Shown one piece after another: positions 27,238 through 64,000 of a stretch of 64,000 nucleotides of DNA; position 1 is the first letter of the stretch, and each line of letters opens with the position of its first letter. Location of the stretch: assembly GCF_041886205.1 (NCBI RefSeq), contig NZ_CP169029.1, one strand, 5' to 3'. Under the pieces are notes generated by a model, which ran no database searches, had not been told where the DNA came from, and saw only the letters and a program-made list of their open reading frames with translations. Source of the DNA: Escherichia coli. Lineage in GTDB: Bacteria > Pseudomonadota > Gammaproteobacteria > Enterobacterales > Enterobacteriaceae. Both the position numbers and the translations under genes were made by a program.

Positions 27238-29742
27238 ATGTCACAAACTATCGACCTGACCCTGGACGGCCTGTCCTGCGGTCACTGCGTTAAACGCGTG
27301 AAAGAAAGTCTTGAACAGCGTCCGGATGTTGAGCAGGCGGATGTGTCTATCACTGAAGCGCACGTTACCGGGACTGCCAGTGCAGAACAGCTGATCGAAA
27401 CCATCAAACAAGCGGGTTATGACGCATCTGTAAGCCACCCAAAGGCTAAACCGCTGGCGGAGTCATCAATCCCGTCGGAAGCACTGACAGCGGTTTCTGA
27501 GGCGCTTCCGGCAGCGACCGCCGATGACGATGACAGCCAGCAGTTGCTGCTGAGCGGCATGAGCTGCGCCAGCTGTGTCACCCGCGTACAAAATGCGTTG
27601 CAAAGCGTACCGGGCGTCACTCAGGCACGGGTAAACCTGGCGGAGCGTACTGCGCTGGTGATGGGCAGTGCCTCCCCACAAGATTTAGTGCAGGCGGTGG
27701 AAAAAGCGGGCTACGGTGCGGAAGCGATTGAAGATGACGCTAAACGCCGCGAGCGCCAGCAAGAAACCGCCGTAGCTACGATGAAGCGCTTCCGCTGGCA
27801 GGCAATTGTTGCACTGGCTGTGGGTATCCCGGTAATGGTCTGGGGGATGATCGGCGATAACATGATGGTCACCGCTGACAACCGCAGCTTGTGGTTAGTT
27901 ATCGGCCTGATAACCCTGGCAGTGATGGTTTTCGCCGGCGGCCATTTTTACCGCAGTGCATGGAAAAGCCTGCTGAACGGTGCAGCGACGATGGATACGC
28001 TGGTGGCGCTGGGAACGGGTGTGGCGTGGCTCTATTCGATGAGCGTCAACCTGTGGCCGCAGTGGTTCCCGATGGAAGCGCGGCATCTTTACTATGAAGC
28101 CAGTGCGATGATTATCGGTCTGATTAATCTCGGCCATATGCTGGAAGCGCGCGCACGTCAGCGTTCTTCTAAGGCGCTGGAGAAATTACTCGATTTAACC
28201 CCACCGACGGCGCGAGTGGTCACCGCAGAGGGTGAAAAAAGCGTGCCGCTGGCGGAAGTTCAGCCAGGGATGTTACTGCGCCTGACGACCGGCGATCGCG
28301 TGCCGGTAGATGGCGAGATTACCCAGGGCGAAGCATGGCTGGATGAAGCGATGCTGACGGGCGAACCAATCCCACAGCAAAAAGGCGAAGGCGAAAGCGT
28401 CCATGCCGGGACAGTGGTACAGGACGGCAGTGTGCTGTTTCGTGCCAGTGCGGTTGGCAGCCATACCACGCTGTCACGGATCATTCGCATGGTGCGCCAG
28501 GCCCAGAGCAGCAAGCCAGAAATCGGTCAGCTGGCGGATAAAATCTCAGCCGTATTTGTACCTGTGGTGGTGGTGATTGCGCTGGTCAGTGCGGCAATCT
28601 GGTACTTCTTTGGTCCGGCACCGCAAATTGTTTATACCCTGGTGATTGCCACCACGGTACTGATTATCGCCTGTCCGTGTGCGCTGGGGCTGGCGACGCC
28701 GATGTCGATTATTTCCGGCGTCGGGCGGGCGGCTGAGTTTGGCGTGCTGGTGCGGGACGCCGACGCGCTGCAACGCGCCAGTACACTCGATACCGTCGTG
28801 TTCGATAAAACCGGGACGCTGACCGAAGGGAAGCCGCAGGTTGTCGCAGTGAAAACGTTTGCTGATGTTGATGAAGCGCAGGCATTGCGTCTGGCGGCGG
28901 CACTGGAGCAAGGTTCCAGCCATCCGCTGGCACGGGCGATCCTCGATAAAGCAGGTGATATGCAGCTGCCGCAGGTCAACGGTTTCCGCACATTGCGCGG
29001 GCTGGGCGTGAGCGGTGAAGCTGAAGGTCATGCGTTATTGCTGGGCAATCAGGCGCTGTTAAATGAGCAACAGGTTGGTACCAAAGCTATCGAAGCGGAG
29101 ATTACTGCTCAGGCATCGCAAGGAGCAACGCCTGTGCTGCTGGCGATTGACGGGAAAGCAATAGCCCTGCTGGCTGTACGCGATCCGTTGCGTAGTGATA
29201 GCGTGGCGGCGCTGCAACGCCTGCATAAAGCGGGATATCGTCTGGTGATGTTGACCGGGGATAACCCAACCACCGCCAATGCGATCGCCAAAGAAGCCGG
29301 GATTGATGAGGTGATAGCCGGGGTGCTGCCGGACGGTAAAGCCGAAGCGATCAAACGTCTGCAAAGTGAAGGACGTCAGGTGGCAATGGTGGGCGACGGC
29401 ATTAACGATGCGCCAGCGCTGGCCCAGGCAGATGTCGGCATTGCAATGGGCGGCGGCAGTGATGTTGCCATTGAAACCGCGGCGATTACCCTGATGCGCC
29501 ATAGCCTGATGGGCGTTGCGGATGCGCTCGCTATTTCCCGCGCAACGCTGCGCAACATGAAGCAGAACCTGCTCGGCGCGTTTATCTACAACAGTATCGG
29601 TATTCCGGTCGCCGCCGGTATTTTGTGGCCGTTTACTGGAACACTGCTTAACCCGGTGGTTGCCGGAGCGGCAATGGCGCTCTCGTCGATTACCGTAGTG
29701 AGTAACGCCAACCGGTTGCTGCGGTTTAAACCGAAGGAATAA
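27238..29742 (+). CDS. copA: Cu(I)-exporting P1B-type ATPase
   Basis: Two GMSCxxC metal-binding domains, [16 protein letters not shown] motifs, 834 aa. Confidence 0.95.
27438..27444 (+). promoter_or_regulatory. copA programmed -1 frameshift slippery site
   Basis: CCCAAAG at codons 68-69; -1 frame reads GGC then TAA stop, giving the short CopA(Z) product. Confidence 0.6.
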
Positions 29743-57299: not shown

Positions 57300-57447
57300 A
57301 TGCATAACCTACGAACATTAAGGAGTAATTGAACCACCAACTCAGGATCTCATACGAAAACCAGTATTAACCTCGCATAAAATTCATAAAAAATACTGAT
57401 TGTTAGTTAATTTATATTAAGTAGCGCTAATAGGTAATGACTCCAAC

Positions 57448-57951
57448 TTATTGATAGTGTTTTATGTTCAGATAATGCCCGATGACTTTGTCATGCAGCT
57501 CCACCGATTTTGAGAACGACAGCGACTTCCGTCCCAGCCGTGCCAGGTGCTGTCTCAGATTCAGGTTATGCCGCTCAATTCGCTGCGTATATCGCTTGCT
57601 GATTACGTGCAGCTTTCCCTTCAGGCGGGATTCATACAGCGGCCAGCCATCCGTCATCCATATCACCACGTCAAAGGGTGACAGCAGGCTCATAAGACGC
57701 CCCAGCGTCGCCATAGTGCGTTCACCGAATACGTGCGCAACAACCGTCTTCCGGAGCCTGTCATACGCGTAAAACAGCCAGCGCTGGCGCGATTTAGCCC
57801 CGACATAGCCCCACTGTTCGTCCATTTCCGCGCAGACGATGACGTCACTGCCCGGCTGTATGCGCGAGGTTACCGACTGCGGCCTGAGTTTTTTAAATGG
57901 CGGAAAATCGTGTTGAGGCCAACGCCCATAATGCGGGCGGTTGCCCGGCAT
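57448..57951 (-). CDS. insB: IS1 InsB (expressed as InsAB' by -1 frameshift at A6C, 57888-57894)
   Basis: 167-aa ORF overlapping insA; AAAAAAC motif on the minus strand. Confidence 0.9.
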
Positions 57952-58145
57952 CCAACGCCATTCATGGCCATATCAATGATTTTCTGGTGCGTACCGGGTT
58001 GAGAAGCGGTGTAAGTGAACTGCAGTTGCCATGTTTTACGGCAGTGAGAGCAGAGATAGCGCTGATGTCCGGCGGTGCTTTTGCCGTTACGCACCACCCC
58101 GTCAGTAGCTGAACAGGAGGGACAGCTGATAGAAACAGAAGCCAC
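57870..58145 (-). CDS. insA: IS1 InsA
   Basis: 91-aa [46 protein letters not shown]... Confidence 0.92.
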
Positions 58146-58580
58146 TGGAGCACCTCAAAAACACCATCATACACTAAATCAGTAAGTTGGCAGCATCACC
58201 GCGCTAATAGATTTAATAATCCATAATCATTTAGAGGCTATTCTTAATTATTTGCGGTAATTCTTTATTCATTCCTCGGTTATTACGTCATATTCAGAGC
58301 AATCCTGGTATTAGTGTCACCAATGTCATCTGGCGATAATCCTGAAATGTTATGAACTGTTCGAGCAAACTGCTTTTACCTACTGCGGGTTGGTGCTAGT
58401 ATGAAAAAGTGAGTCCTGTCCTGCTTCCTTCCTAATTGTAATTTTTCGTAATAATGCGATGAAAACCTGCAAAGAGTGGCTTATAGTTAAGCTAACAAAC
58501 GAGAGGGCAAGTCTAGGTCAGTAAGTTTTTTCCATCCCGAAAGGTGTCCGTTAGTTCAACCACTAAGAAGGGGACGCGTT

Positions 58581-58955
58581 ATGGATGAATACTCACCCAA
58601 AAGACATGATATCGCACAGCTTAAGTTTCTCTGTGAAACCCTGTATCATGACTGCCTTGCAAACCTTGAAGAAAGCAATCATGGCTGGGTAAACGACCCA
58701 ACCTCGGCGATCAACCTCCAGTTGAATGAACTGATTGAGCATATTGCGACCTTCGCACTTAATTACAAAATTAAGTATAATGAAGACAATAAGCTCATTG
58801 AGCAGATCGACGAATATCTGGATGACACCTTTATGTTGTTCAGTAGTTATGGTATTAATATGCAGGATCTTCAGAAATGGCGGAAGTCAGGTAATCGACT
58901 ATTCCGTTGTTTTGTCAATGCGACGAAAGAGAATCCTGCGAGTTTATCTTGTTAG
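58581..58955 (+). CDS. tomB: Hha toxicity modulator TomB
   Basis: 124-aa [28 protein letters not shown]..., directly upstream of hha. Confidence 0.9.
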
Positions 58956-58980
58956 AATTATTACAACCATGGGTAGAAGT

Positions 58981-59199
58981 ATGTCCGAAAAACCTTTAAC
59001 GAAAACCGATTATTTAATGCGTTTACGTCGTTGCCAGACAATTGACACGCTGGAGCGTGTTATCGAGAAAAATAAATACGAATTATCAGATAATGAACTG
59101 GCGGTATTTTACTCAGCCGCAGATCACCGCCTCGCCGAATTGACCATGAATAAACTGTACGACAAGATCCCTTCCTCAGTATGGAAATTTATTCGCTAA
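58981..59199 (+). CDS. hha: haemolysin expression modulator Hha
   Basis: [39 protein letters not shown]...; 72 aa from internal Met of the longer track ORF. Confidence 0.92.
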
Positions 59200-59370
59200 T
59201 AAATAATTCGCTTTCGGAGCTATAACCGGCTGTTTATTAAGAATTTTATACTTTTTCGCCATGAAGACATACCCTATGTGATCTTTATCACACAGATGTA
59301 ATGGGAACGTTCTCTTCACTGACTTTTCGTCTTACTGTGTTGCCGCATTTTCAGCAACCAGAGGTCAGTA

Positions 59371-59958
59371 ATGAGCACAGAAAAAGAAAAGATGATTGCT
59401 GGTGAGTTGTATCGCTCGGCAGATGAGGCGTTATCTCGCGATCGCCTGCGCGCTCGTCAGCTTATTCACCGATACAATCATTCCCTGGCGGAAGAGCACA
59501 CATTACGCCAGCAAATTCTCGCTGATCTATTCGGTCAGGTGACAGAGGCTTATATTGAGCCAACGTTTCGCTGTGACTATGGCTATAACATCTTTCTCGG
59601 CAATAATTTTTTCGCCAACTTCGATTGCGTGATGCTTGATGTCTGCCCTATTCGCATCGGTGATAACTGTATGCTGGCACCAGGCGTTCATATCTACACG
59701 GCAACACATCCCATCGACCCTGTAGCACGTAATAGCGGTGCTGAACTGGGGAAACCCTTCACCATCGGTAATAACGTCTGGATTGGCGGACGCGCGGTCA
59801 TTAACCCTGGTGTGACCATTGGTGATAACGTCGTGGTAGCCTCAGGTGCAGTTGTCACAAAAGATGTCCCGGACAACGTTGTCGTGGGCGGTAATCCAGC
59901 CAGAATAATTAAAAAATTGCAATCGGTTTTTCGCAACTGTTATGCAAAATTGTGGTAA
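59371..59958 (+). CDS. maa: maltose O-acetyltransferase (hexapeptide repeat)
   Basis: [21 protein letters not shown]...; ORF is 195 aa here. Confidence 0.88.
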
Positions 59959-60037
59959 ATCTGTTACTTTCCCTCTACTATTCCCACGTTAAAATAGGGT
60001 GTTCCCTAGAAAGTTGCAGATACCACGAAGGCAAACG

Positions 60038-60508
60038 ATGACCGAAATACAACGCCTGCTGACCGAAACGATTGAGTCTCTGAATACCCGCGAAAAACGC
60101 GATAACAAACCCCGCTTTAGTATCAGTTTTATCCGTAAACATCCGGGGCTGTTTATCGGTATGTATGTTGCTTTTTTTGCCACCCTGGCGGTGATGTTGC
60201 AGTCCGAAACGCTTTCAGGCTCTGTCTGGTTACTGGTTGTATTATTTATCCTGCTTAATGGTTTCTTCTTTTTCGATGTCTACCCACGCTACCGCTATGA
60301 AGATATCGACGTGCTGGATTTCCGCGTTTGCTATAACGGCGAATGGTACAACACGCGCTTTGTACCTGCCGCGCTGGTTGAAGCCATCTTGAACTCTCCG
60401 CGTGTCGCGGATGTTCAAAAAGAACAACTGCAAAAAATGATCGTCCGTAAAGGTGAATTGTCTTTTTACGATATTTTTACCCTTGCTCGCGCCGAATCAA
60501 CATCTTAA
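60038..60508 (+). CDS. ylaC: inner membrane protein YlaC
   Basis: [27 protein letters not shown]...; 156 aa from internal Met. Confidence 0.85.
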
Positions 60509-60665
60509 GTTAGAGTTACATACCAGGCGTAAAGCTCTGCGCCTGGTCAAATGACAACGTTCGTTTCCACCCATCACTTCATGAAATACCGGTTCTACCT
60601 CCTTATCTCCTGCCAGCCTTTTTCCACAATCGGATATACTTTCTCTACACTGTGTTAATAAGGAT

Positions 60666-62222
60666 ATGCTGGTGAGAACACGACATCTGGTCGGCCTTAT
60701 TTCGGGAGTACTGATTCTTTCAGTATTGCTGCCTGTCGGCTTAAGCCTCTGGCTGGCCCATCAGCAGGTAGAAACATCATTTATTGAAGAGCTGAATACC
60801 TATTCCTCCCGCGTCGCTATTCGGGCCAATAAGGTGGCGATACAAGGGAAAGATGCGCTGCAAGAGCTGGAAAGATGGCAAGGCGCTGCCTGTAGCGAAG
60901 CCCATCTCATGGAAATGCGTCGGGTATCTTACAGTTATCGCTATATTCAGGAAGTGGTTTATATCGATAACAACGTTCCCCAGTGTTCGTCTCTGGAGCA
61001 TGAAAGCCCGCCCGATACCTTCCCCGAGCCAGGTAAAATTTCGAAAGATGGTTATCGTGTCTGGTTAACATCGCATAACGATTTAGGCATTATCCGTTAC
61101 ATGGTCGCCATGGGAACGGCACATTATGTCGTCATGATCGACCCCGCTTCCTTTATTGATGTCATTCCCTATAGCTCATGGCAAATTGATGCCGCCATTA
61201 TTGGCAATGCCCATAACGTTGTGATAACCAGCAGCGATGAAATTGCTCAGGGAATTATTACCAGGCTACAAAAAACACCCGGTGAGCATATCGAAAATAA
61301 TGGAATCATTTACGATATCCTGCCCTTCCCGGAGATGAATATTTCGATCATCACCTGGGCTTCAACGAAAATGTTGCAGAAAGGCTGGCATTGGCAAGTC
61401 TTTATTTGGTTACCGCTCGGGTTGGTGATTAGCCTGCTGGCAGCGATGTTTGTGCTGCGTATTTTGCGCCGTATCCAGTCACCGCATCATCGGCTGCAGG
61501 ATGCTATCGAAAATCGTGATATTTGCGTGCACTATCAGCCAATTGTCTCCTTAGCCAATGGCAAAATTGTCGGTGCTGAGGCACTGGCGCGCTGGCCGCA
61601 GACAGACGGTAGTTGGTTGTCACCAGATAGTTTTATTCCGCTGGCACAGCAAACGGGCCTTTCTGAGCCATTGACGCTACTGATTATAAGAAGCGTCTTT
61701 GAAGATATGGGCGACTGGCTGCGTCAGCATCCACAGCAGCATATTTCGATCAATCTTGAATCCACCGTGCTCACCTCGGAAAAAATCCCGCAATTGCTGC
61801 GTGAAATGATCAATCACTATCAGGTTAATCCCAGACAGATCGCGCTTGAACTCACTGAACGCGAGTTTGCCGATCCGAAGACAAGCGCCCCGATAATTTC
61901 TCGCTACCGGGAGGCGGGCCATGAAATTTATCTTGATGATTTTGGTACGGGATATTCAAGTTTAAGTTATTTACAGGATCTGGATGTCGACATTCTGAAG
62001 ATCGATAAATCTTTCGTTGATGCGCTGGAATATAAAAATGTCACGCCGCATATCATCGAAATGGCAAAAACACTGAAACTGAAAATGGTAGCGGAGGGAA
62101 TCGAAACCAGTAAACAAGAAGAGTGGCTACGCCAGCATGGCGTGCACTACGGTCAGGGCTGGCTCTACAGCAAGGCATTACCGAAAGAAGATTTCTTACG
62201 CTGGGCCGAGCAACATTTGTGA
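60666..62222 (+). CDS. pdeB: c-di-GMP phosphodiesterase (CSS-motif sensor plus EAL domain)
   Basis: N-terminal TM and periplasmic domain, C-terminal EAL domain (EGIET, DDFGTG). Confidence 0.88.
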   Translation: MLVRTRHLVGLISGVLILSVLLPVGLSLWLAHQQVETSFIEELNTYSSRVAIRANKVAIQGKDALQELERWQGAACSEAHLMEMRRVSYSYRYIQEVVYIDNNVPQCSSLEHESPPDTFPEPGKISKDGYRVWLTSHNDLGIIRYMVAMGTAHYVVMIDPASFIDVIPYSSWQIDAAIIGNAHNVVITSSDEIAQGIITRLQKTPGEHIENNGIIYDILPFPEMNISIITWASTKMLQKGWHWQVFIWLPLGLVISLLAAMFVLRILRRIQSPHHRLQDAIENRDICVHYQPIVSLANGKIVGAEALARWPQTDGSWLSPDSFIPLAQQTGLSEPLTLLIIRSVFEDMGDWLRQHPQQHISINLESTVLTSEKIPQLLREMINHYQVNPRQIALELTEREFADPKTSAPIISRYREAGHEIYLDDFGTGYSSLSYLQDLDVDILKIDKSFVDALEYKNVTPHIIEMAKTLKLKMVAEGIETSKQEEWLRQHGVHYGQGWLYSKALPKEDFLRWAEQHL

Positions 62223-62262
62223 ATTTTTGGGCTGACGGCACGCCGCACAGCCCGTCCGCTAC

Positions 62263-62616
62263 CTATTCGTCGATGATTGACTCGAATCCGCCATAGATCA
62301 TTCGCTTGCCGTCAAACGGCATGGACTCGCCGAACTCTTTCATCCGTGGGTCCGACATCATCTTTTGATTAGCAGCGTCGCGGACCTCTTTTGAAGGGTA
62401 TTCAATCCAGCTAAAGACAACCTCTTCATTCTCTTCCGCTTTCACCGCCATACGAAAATCGGTCACTTTGCCATCCGGTACATCGCTGGCCCAGCATTCG
62501 ACAATACGAAGCGCGCCAAACTCTTTAAACAATGGCGCAGCCTTAGCGGCCATTTCCCGATAGGCATCCTTTTTATCGGCAGGAACGGCAACCACAAAAC
62601 CATCAACATACTTCAT
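62263..62616 (-). CDS. ybaA: DUF1428 protein
   Basis: 117-aa ORF MKYVDGFVVAVPADKK... Confidence 0.85.
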   Translation of the reverse strand: MKYVDGFVVAVPADKKDAYREMAAKAAPLFKEFGALRIVECWASDVPDGKVTDFRMAVKAEENEEVVFSWIEYPSKEVRDAANQKMMSDPRMKEFGESMPFDGKRMIYGGFESIIDE

Positions 62617-62726
62617 CAGACATACCTCCGAAGCGTACTGCGCAGCCAGACAATTCTTGCGACGTCAGTTGTGGTTAAAGTTTAGCCATGTTGGGATTTT
62701 TTGACGAAACGGTGGGAGGCAGAAAT

Positions 62727-62840
62727 GGGTGGGGGCCCTGCCAGCTACATCCCGGCACACGCGTCATCTGCCTTGGCTGCTTCCTTCCGGACCTGACCTG
62801 GTAAACAGAGTAGCGTTGCGGGAGAACCAACAGAGCCCCC
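62727..62840 (-). ncRNA. ffs: 4.5S RNA (SRP RNA)
   Basis: Reverse complement reads GGGGGCUCUGUUGGUUCUCCCGCAACGC...GGCAGGGCCCCCACCC, 114 nt, matching 4.5S RNA from memory. Confidence 0.95.
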
Positions 62841-62916
62841 ATTGAGAGCGTTGAGAACCAACGCGCAGGCGCATTATCACTGCTGCCCCGGCTAATTGCA
62901 ACCCATCGCGTGCCAG

Positions 62917-63306
62917 ATGCTGGTTTCTTGCGCAATGCGACTTCACTCGGGCGTTTTTCCAGATTATGCTGAAAAATTACCTCAGGAAGAAAAGATGGAA
63001 AAAGAAGATTCATTTCCCCAACGCGTCTGGCAAATCGTCGCCGCTATTCCCGAAGGCTATGTCACCACTTACGGTGATGTGGCGAAACTGGCGGGATCGC
63101 CCCGCGCCGCGCGCCAGGTGGGCGGTGTGTTAAAGCGTCTCCCTGAAGGCAGCACCTTACCCTGGCACCGGGTGGTTAATCGCCACGGCACAATTTCGCT
63201 AACCGGACCGGATTTACAGCGTCAGCGACAGGCATTACTGGCAGAAGGTGTGATGGTATCGGGAAGCGGGCAAATCGACTTGCAGCGTTATCGCTGGAAC
63301 TACTAA
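62917..63306 (+). CDS. atl: alkyltransferase-like protein (MGMT-like DNA-binding domain)
   Basis: MLVSCAMRLHSG... with VWQIVAAIPEGYVTTYGDVA and PWHRVV motifs; 129 aa. Confidence 0.85.
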   Translation: MLVSCAMRLHSGVFPDYAEKLPQEEKMEKEDSFPQRVWQIVAAIPEGYVTTYGDVAKLAGSPRAARQVGGVLKRLPEGSTLPWHRVVNRHGTISLTGPDLQRQRQALLAEGVMVSGSGQIDLQRYRWNY

Positions 63307-63336
63307 CCCTCTCCGGGCGGAGAGGGTTAACGTCGC

Positions 63337-63909
63337 TTAATATTGCGTAGGAGCTGGAACTGCCGAAGACGGATTCACCTGAGTTGGTGAAGTCGAAGGT
63401 ACGGTAGTCGTTGCACCACCGCTGGCCTGAACCGGCACGGCGGTTTGCTGCACCGGCACCAATGTCAGGTCGGCTTTAGTTCCGCCCTTGTTGATCACCG
63501 GCTGAACGGTATCGGTAATAAATACCAGTTTGTCATTCACGGTAATCGCCGCACTCAACAGAATACGCGCGTTCGGCTGAACATCTGCCGGGTTAAATGG
63601 CAGAACAAAGCTGAATGGTGACTGTTTACCTTCGGTACGCACCGCTTTCTGCGCCAGCACTTTTGACGGTGCATCGGCTAACGACGCGTCAGAAAGTGTC
63701 ACGGTCAGCACAGCATCAGGCGGCAGTGCGACTTTCTGACGGATCCAGACGGTACCGGAGACATTCGGTTGCTGGATAGCAGGTTGTTGTGTTGCTGAAA
63801 TAGACGTATTTGCAGCCGGGGCTGGCGTCTGAATATCCGCGCTTTTATCTGCGCAAGCCGCCAACGCAATCGCAACCGCTAAACCACTGGCCATGTGCAC
63901 GAGTTTCAT
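63337..63909 (-). CDS. ybaY: lipoprotein YbaY
   Basis: 190-aa ORF with lipobox LAACA and Pro/Ala/Thr-rich tail. Confidence 0.85.
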   Translation of the reverse strand: MKLVHMASGLAVAIALAACADKSADIQTPAPAANTSISATQQPAIQQPNVSGTVWIRQKVALPPDAVLTVTLSDASLADAPSKVLAQKAVRTEGKQSPFSFVLPFNPADVQPNARILLSAAITVNDKLVFITDTVQPVINKGGTKADLTLVPVQQTAVPVQASGGATTTVPSTSPTQVNPSSAVPAPTQY

Positions 63910-64000
63910 TCATTTCTCCTTATTATCAATGCACCAGCGGGCTAACTTTCCTCGCCGGAAGAGTGGTTAACAAAATAGTAACGTCAATAAGTGTGGCACA

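Follow-up and report, generated by a model that had tools for sequence, protein, structure and literature searches.

The maltose O-acetyltransferase (Maa) of Escherichia coli K-12 (b0459; PDB entries 1ocx and 6ag8; NCBIfam equivalog NF007499) is a protein of 183 residues, and it shares both its locus and its architecture, a Mac domain followed by hexapeptide repeats, with the protein described here. Its paralogue LacA (galactoside O-acetyltransferase, 203 residues, PDB 1kqa) belongs to the same fold family and naturally extends about 20 residues past the end of Maa, and the fold therefore accepts a longer C-terminus. In the sister species E. albertii, Maa has 185 residues in all seven of the sequences seen and ends in ...KKLQP or ...KKLQL. 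Codon 184 of its gene is CAA, as in the gene analysed below. In contrast to that gene, however, the E. albertii frame stops two codons further on and the downstream sequence differs, and this is apparently the normal state of the species rather than a rare allele.

Loss of a stop codon with the gain of a short C-terminal extension encoded by formerly non-coding DNA has been described as a polymorphism in yeast and in Drosophila (PMC4494051). The maa gene presented here resembles these cases in that one base removes the stop codon, the next in-frame stop lies a few codons on, and the change is still polymorphic. Unlike them, it is bacterial and has no 3'-UTR, and what has been co-opted is a short intergenic spacer, which probably contains the promoter of the next gene. 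The gene lies in a stretch of E. coli DNA of 64,000 nucleotides, which was analysed as a whole and is referred to below as the window.

Results

Identity of the extended reading frame

The features of the gene are as follows.

59371..59958, + strand: maa (maltose O-acetyltransferase) coding sequence, 195 codons plus stop (ORF list, PGAP, NCBIfam and Pfam)
59758..59760, + strand: codon 130, TTC (Phe), which is GTC (Val) in K-12; G388T, non-synonymous and specific to the window haplotype (alignment)
59920..59922, + strand: codon 184, CAA (Gln), which is a TAA stop in K-12 and nearly all E. coli (alignments, genome census)
59920..59955, + strand: C-terminal extension of 12 codons, which is maa-ylaC spacer in other strains (translation; outside the 183-position NCBIfam model; AlphaFold pLDDT)
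59956..59958, + strand: new stop codon TAA, which is TAG in K-12 and CAA in strain A24 and so is not conserved (alignment)

The ORF listing of the window gives one open reading frame of 195 codons at 59371..59958 on the + strand, the length reported in the initial annotation. That annotation had also given K-12 Maa as a protein of 183 residues ending in KKL, had read the triplets ttg caa tcg at the corresponding site, and had proposed that a single T-to-C change at a TAA stop codon would explain the longer frame. All of this was borne out. The MG1655 coding sequence comprises 552 nt and encodes 183 residues ending in ...IIKKL, the triplets are found at 59917-59925, and a base-by-base alignment places TTG TAA of K-12 opposite TTG CAA of the window. 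The K-12 gene thus neither encodes 195 residues nor carries CAA at this codon, and the sole difference at its stop codon is the T-to-C substitution at nt 550 of maa, which is position 59920 of the window. As the alignment contains no gaps, the stop codon was lost by one substitution, TAA to CAA, and not by a frameshift, and positions 59920-59958 hold exactly 12 new codons plus the new stop codon. The 36 nt that were added belong to the maa-ylaC spacer in K-12, and the tail that they encode falls outside every family model (Pfam and NCBIfam). The window maa is a stop-loss polymorphism that is real, already catalogued and ordinary.

With regard to the remainder of the protein, residues 1-183 match positions 1-183 of the 183 positions of equivalog NF007499 with 391.6 bits (cutoff 314), compared with 395.9 bits for K-12 Maa, from which they differ by two substitutions, T20A and V130F. 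The Mac domain (PF12464) is found at residues 7-57 and the Hexapep domains (PF00132/PF14602) at residues 129-164, so that the N-terminal Mac capping motif followed by hexapeptide repeats, which form the left-handed beta-helix, is present. PDB entries 1ocx and 6ag8 both match the protein with an E-value of about 1e-122. The gene order tomB-hha-maa-ylaC-pdeB is the same as in K-12, and the position of maa between hha and ylaC is common to the window, K-12, E. albertii, E. ruysiae and Salmonella. His113, which we take from the Maa/LacA literature to be the catalytic base, is invariant across an alignment of 50 sequences including the window protein, and the other invariant residues are also kept. 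The gene does not qualify as a pseudogene, with its frame intact over residues 1-195 and its core matched at full length. The identical coding sequence of 588 nt in strain wlxctx60 is called maa by PGAP, whose annotation carries no pseudogene flag on maa in any of the five carrier genomes. By every test run, the protein is Maa; it may acetylate maltose or glucose with acetyl-CoA, an activity that V130F and the tail make uncertain.

Substitution at residue 130

Residue 130 is among the nearly invariant columns of Maa. It is valine in 133 of 135 homologues, and phenylalanine is found only in the window allele. The hexapeptide motif is [LIV]-G-x2-[STAV]-x, and V130 would occupy the small-residue position of one such repeat, L126-G-K-P-V130-T. 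A phenylalanine at this position could destabilise the beta-helix, and judged from the sequence its influence on the enzyme would be no less likely than that of the tail. The window protein may thus be impaired for a reason unrelated to its extension.

The co-occurrence of V130F and the stop loss could indicate that maa is decaying in the lineage of the window, where it would be dispensable and under relaxed selection, with a product of 195 residues that is partly or wholly inactive. The conservation of V130 and its place in the repeat speak for this reading, and the many damaged maa variants in the protein collection (truncated forms, and long forms of 206-223 residues) suggest weak constraint on the gene. 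However, the frame is intact, the core scores almost as high on the Maa equivalog as K-12 Maa does (391.6 against 395.9 bits), and His113 and the other invariant residues are retained. Moreover, the stop loss is found in strains O6:H16 and Z142-6, whose alleles lack V130F, so that the two changes are not a package, and the exact window allele is seen on 204 contigs, so that it has persisted and spread. Decay of the gene is consequently considered unlikely.

Other deviant forms of Maa were also observed in the collection. Some long alleles, of 206, 222 and 223 residues, diverge right after the A-run that precedes the stop codon (IIKNCNQ... and IIKKIV...), which would fit frameshifts; one form of 223 residues was seen on 22 contigs. 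One form of 208 residues has a leucine at the stop position, and truncated forms also exist. The match in strain YD786 is confined to 54% of the maa query, at the 3' end, and its annotation is that of a generic acetyltransferase.

Properties of the C-terminal tail

The 12-residue tail is probably tolerated, because the C-termini of Maa vary and because a chain with eight extra residues was crystallised. Orthologues from the Enterobacteriaceae end at 183, 184, 185, 187 or 188 residues and have unrelated tails. The chain in PDB entry 6ag8 comprises 191 residues, the last eight of which are additional and are assumed to be an affinity tag. Whereas the longer C-terminus of LacA has evolved together with the rest of LacA, the tail encoded in the window is unselected, translated spacer, and the two share no meaningful similarity.

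AlphaFold gave one confident model out of five (mean pLDDT 82.6, compared with 49-58 for the others), and this model represents a single chain, although the enzyme is a trimer. Models 2-5 were set aside, and model 1 was used cautiously and only for the low confidence of its tail. In this model, the pLDDT is below 50 at residues 187-195, whereas the blocks spanning residues 131-180 average 90-97; the tail is thus predicted to be disordered. The most probable outcome would be a folded enzyme with a disordered appendage that is near-neutral or slightly harmful. The tail is fairly hydrophobic and holds a cysteine, and it could lead to aggregation or misfolding. In the LacA family, CoA is bound at the interface of two subunits, in the part of the beta-helix nearer the C-terminus, and the tail may have an effect on the binding of acetyl-CoA. 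The rarity of the allele (0.09% of complete genomes) fits mild selection against it.

Frequency and haplotypes of the variant

The frequency of the change was determined in a census with queries of 55 bases, designed such that any megablast seed of 28 bases must include nt 550. These 55-mers classify 5,419 of the 5,424 complete E. coli genomes that have maa.

Window/K-12-type background with C at nt 550: 5 complete genomes
K-12-type background with T: 4,175 complete genomes
A24-type background with T: 1,239 complete genomes

Nucleotide 550 is accordingly T in at least 5,414 of the 5,424 genomes and C in five (about 0.09%). The A24-type 55-mer edited to C matched no complete genome, while its T control found 1,239; among the complete genomes, no stop loss was thus found on the divergent A24-type background. 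Beyond the complete genomes, the 195-residue protein of the window corresponds to RefSeq WP_000102544.1, which has already been deposited under the name maltose O-acetyltransferase and occurs on 204 contigs in public assemblies (NCBI, ENA and Logan). In the protein collection, the 195-residue allele of O6:H16 was seen on 175 contigs and that of Z142-6 on five, compared with at least 1,000 contigs for the K-12 protein. No paper discussing this allele was found in the literature searched on the Maa C-terminus or structure, or on maa together with ylaC.

The C at nt 550 occurs on three haplotypes. Within 1,655 nt, the window haplotype, represented by wlxctx60, ET201 and 6EVA, shows 26-27 differences from K-12, and V130F is one of them. 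In O6:H16 strain 2014EL-1346-6, by contrast, maa is identical to K-12 except at nt 550; this strain keeps G588 and C600, and its only other difference lies at position -25. Strain Z142-6 differs from K-12 at nt 550, 562, 588, 600 and 1241, and it shares 550C, 588A and 600T with the window type. This distribution suggests that the change probably had more than one origin. Recombination of the window C into the O6:H16 background would need a tract within nt 389-587, and at least two origins are more simply explained by independent transitions. The C of Z142-6 may derive from a short recombinant patch of the window type.

The maa-ylaC spacer

Two further features lie downstream of the gene.

59990..59995, + strand: TAAAAT box, conserved between E. 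coli and Salmonella (where it reads TAGAAT)
60038..60508, + strand: ylaC, the downstream gene (annotation of the identical wlxctx60 sequence, and K-12)

The extension shortens the maa-ylaC spacer from 115 nt in K-12 to 79 nt in the window. It runs through two blocks, AACTGTTATGC and ATCTGTTACTT (window 59935-59970), which are conserved as far as Salmonella, share a CTGTTA core and lie about 24 nt apart. The TAAAAT box is possibly the -10 element of a ylaC promoter, and together with the two blocks it may represent this promoter with a regulator site. A genomic SELEX peak of the RpoD holoenzyme has been placed in the maa-ylaC spacer and assigned to ylaC (PMC3946193, table entry). A simple consensus promoter scan of 59100-60700 returned no sigma-70-like site, and a terminator scan of the same interval returned no + strand terminator near the 3' end of maa. 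The conservation of the spacer is most likely regulatory rather than coding. It is also the reason why the 12-residue tails produced by independent stop losses on the window and K-12-type backgrounds are nearly identical; the tail of Z142-6 differs by one residue, R188C.

An imperfect inverted repeat, which could act at the level of the DNA, was observed in the spacer at 59949-60031, with repeat arms at 59959-59971 and 60009-60021. In the predicted minimum free energy stem, the 5' side begins around 59949, and the new stop codon of maa falls within it. Compared with shuffled sequences, the fold of the spacer RNA has z = -3.6 in the window and -1.5 in K-12. In the consensus of six species, the stem showed no compensatory pair and its covariation term was unfavourable (+0.98), and an Rfam scan of 59300-60600 at E<=1 gave no match. 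RNA structure was dropped as an explanation, given that the K-12 fold is unremarkable and that the consensus of six species lacks support from covariation.

These features bear on whether the change was selected, either because the tail gives Maa a new property or because ribosomes that travel 36 nt further alter the expression of ylaC. The recurrence of the T-to-C change on three E. coli haplotypes and its fixation in E. albertii would fit selection, and the extension passes through blocks conserved to Salmonella, ends within the predicted long-range stem and lies in the spacer to which the RpoD peak maps. Nevertheless, only five of about 5,424 genomes carry the allele, and they lie at lineage tips; with such deep sampling of the species, repeated transitions at one specific base are to be expected. 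In E. albertii, no more than two residues are added, of different sequence, and the 12-residue tail is conserved nowhere. The stem has neither compensatory pairs in the six species nor an Rfam match, and if TAAAAT is the -10 element of ylaC, then the transcript of ylaC itself would start downstream of the 5' arm. We therefore regard a selected change as very unlikely, and it is just as doubtful that the recurrence on three haplotypes and in E. albertii reflects selection on ylaC expression or on the stability or substrate handling of Maa.

Ancestral state of codon 184

The direction of the change was assessed by comparison with the divergent E. coli strain A24 and with three other species.

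E. coli A24 (divergent), codons 183-184: TTG TAA, stop at 184 (alignment)
E. ruysiae, codons 183-184: CTG TAA, stop at 184 (outgroup alignment)
Salmonella enterica, codons 183-184: TTG TAG, stop at 184 (outgroup alignment)
E. albertii, from codon 183: TTG CAA CCA TAG, 185 residues (alignment)

On this comparison, the stop at codon 184 is ancestral for E. coli and the C is derived, because termination at this codon is common to the two deep E. coli backgrounds and to two outgroups and because other sequences do not maintain the 12 downstream codons as a reading frame: the stop at +12 is missing from A24, and indels are present there in E. ruysiae, E. albertii and Salmonella. The presence of CAA at codon 184 in E. 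albertii would be in line with the opposite polarity, in which CAA came first and a premature TAA stop arose later in K-12 and most strains. This is extremely improbable, since E. ruysiae and Salmonella stop at codon 184, T is found in both deep backgrounds (4,175 K-12-type and 1,239 A24-type genomes), and none of A24, E. ruysiae, E. albertii and Salmonella retains the 12 downstream codons as a frame. As an observation in its own right, E. albertii CP070281.2 (1750-1760 of the locus) carries a fixed shift of the stop at the very codon that is affected in the rare E. coli allele.

Genomic context of the window

The protein of 195 residues is identical in three complete genomes, wlxctx60, ET201 and 6EVA, whose hosts were a bear (Japan), a frog (China) and a human (Singapore), and in wlxctx60 the DNA is identical as well. 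This strain, from an Asian black bear, is 100.000% identical to the window over 34975-57433 and 58201-64000. The only difference is an insertion of 768 bp at 57433-58200 of the window, between acrB and tomB. It begins with GGTAATGACTCCAACTTATTGATAG... and ends with ...CAGTAAGTTGGCAGCATCACC, and it is flanked by a target duplication of 9 bp, GCGCTAATA, with repeats at 57424-57432 and 58201-58209. The ends match what we take to be the inverted repeats of IS1. The insertion lies upstream of tomB-hha and could affect the expression of these genes. A mosaic origin of the maa locus, considered when wlxctx60 was absent among the top 25-kb matches, was rejected, as its match was merely split by the insertion and direct comparison gave 100% identity. 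Strain CP52E is colinear with the window across this site and has an IS1A-family transposase annotated at the place of the insertion; in the annotation of the same strain, ybaA contains an internal stop and is labelled a pseudogene (29365-29718 of the locus).

A sequencing or assembly error in the window, for which only the prior that single-base differences can be errors would speak, is practically incompatible with the identity to wlxctx60 over 28 kb apart from one insertion, with the same allele in ET201 and 6EVA, and with the exact protein on 204 contigs.

Discussion

This study indicates that the maa gene of the window is very probably an ordinary gene apart from the loss of its stop codon by a derived point mutation, with a tail that would be tolerated and near-neutral or slightly harmful and a change that would have arisen repeatedly. 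The mutation, its direction, its rarity, its occurrence on several haplotypes and the full-length match of the remaining protein to Maa follow directly from the sequence comparisons. In the sequence of events that we propose, a T-to-C transition at 59920 converted the ancestral stop codon 184 from TAA to CAA (Gln). Ribosomes would then read 12 more codons of the former maa-ylaC spacer and stop at the in-frame TAA at 59956-59958. The resulting Maa of 195 residues would carry its 12-residue tail as a floppy appendage that the enzyme tolerates, and the allele would persist as a near-neutral or slightly harmful polymorphism of low frequency, with repeated origins.

The calling of a maa gene of 195 codons in the carrier strains is thus genuine and is not an artefact of annotation or assembly, and the window belongs to the lineage of strains wlxctx60, ET201 and 6EVA. 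The locus provides a clean bacterial example of a stop-loss polymorphism, in which 36 nt of intergenic DNA have been made coding at a C-terminus that is naturally variable. With regard to the function of Maa in the lineage of the window, V130F merits more attention than the tail. The significance of the extension itself is small, as it represents a rare strain variant that is probably harmless.
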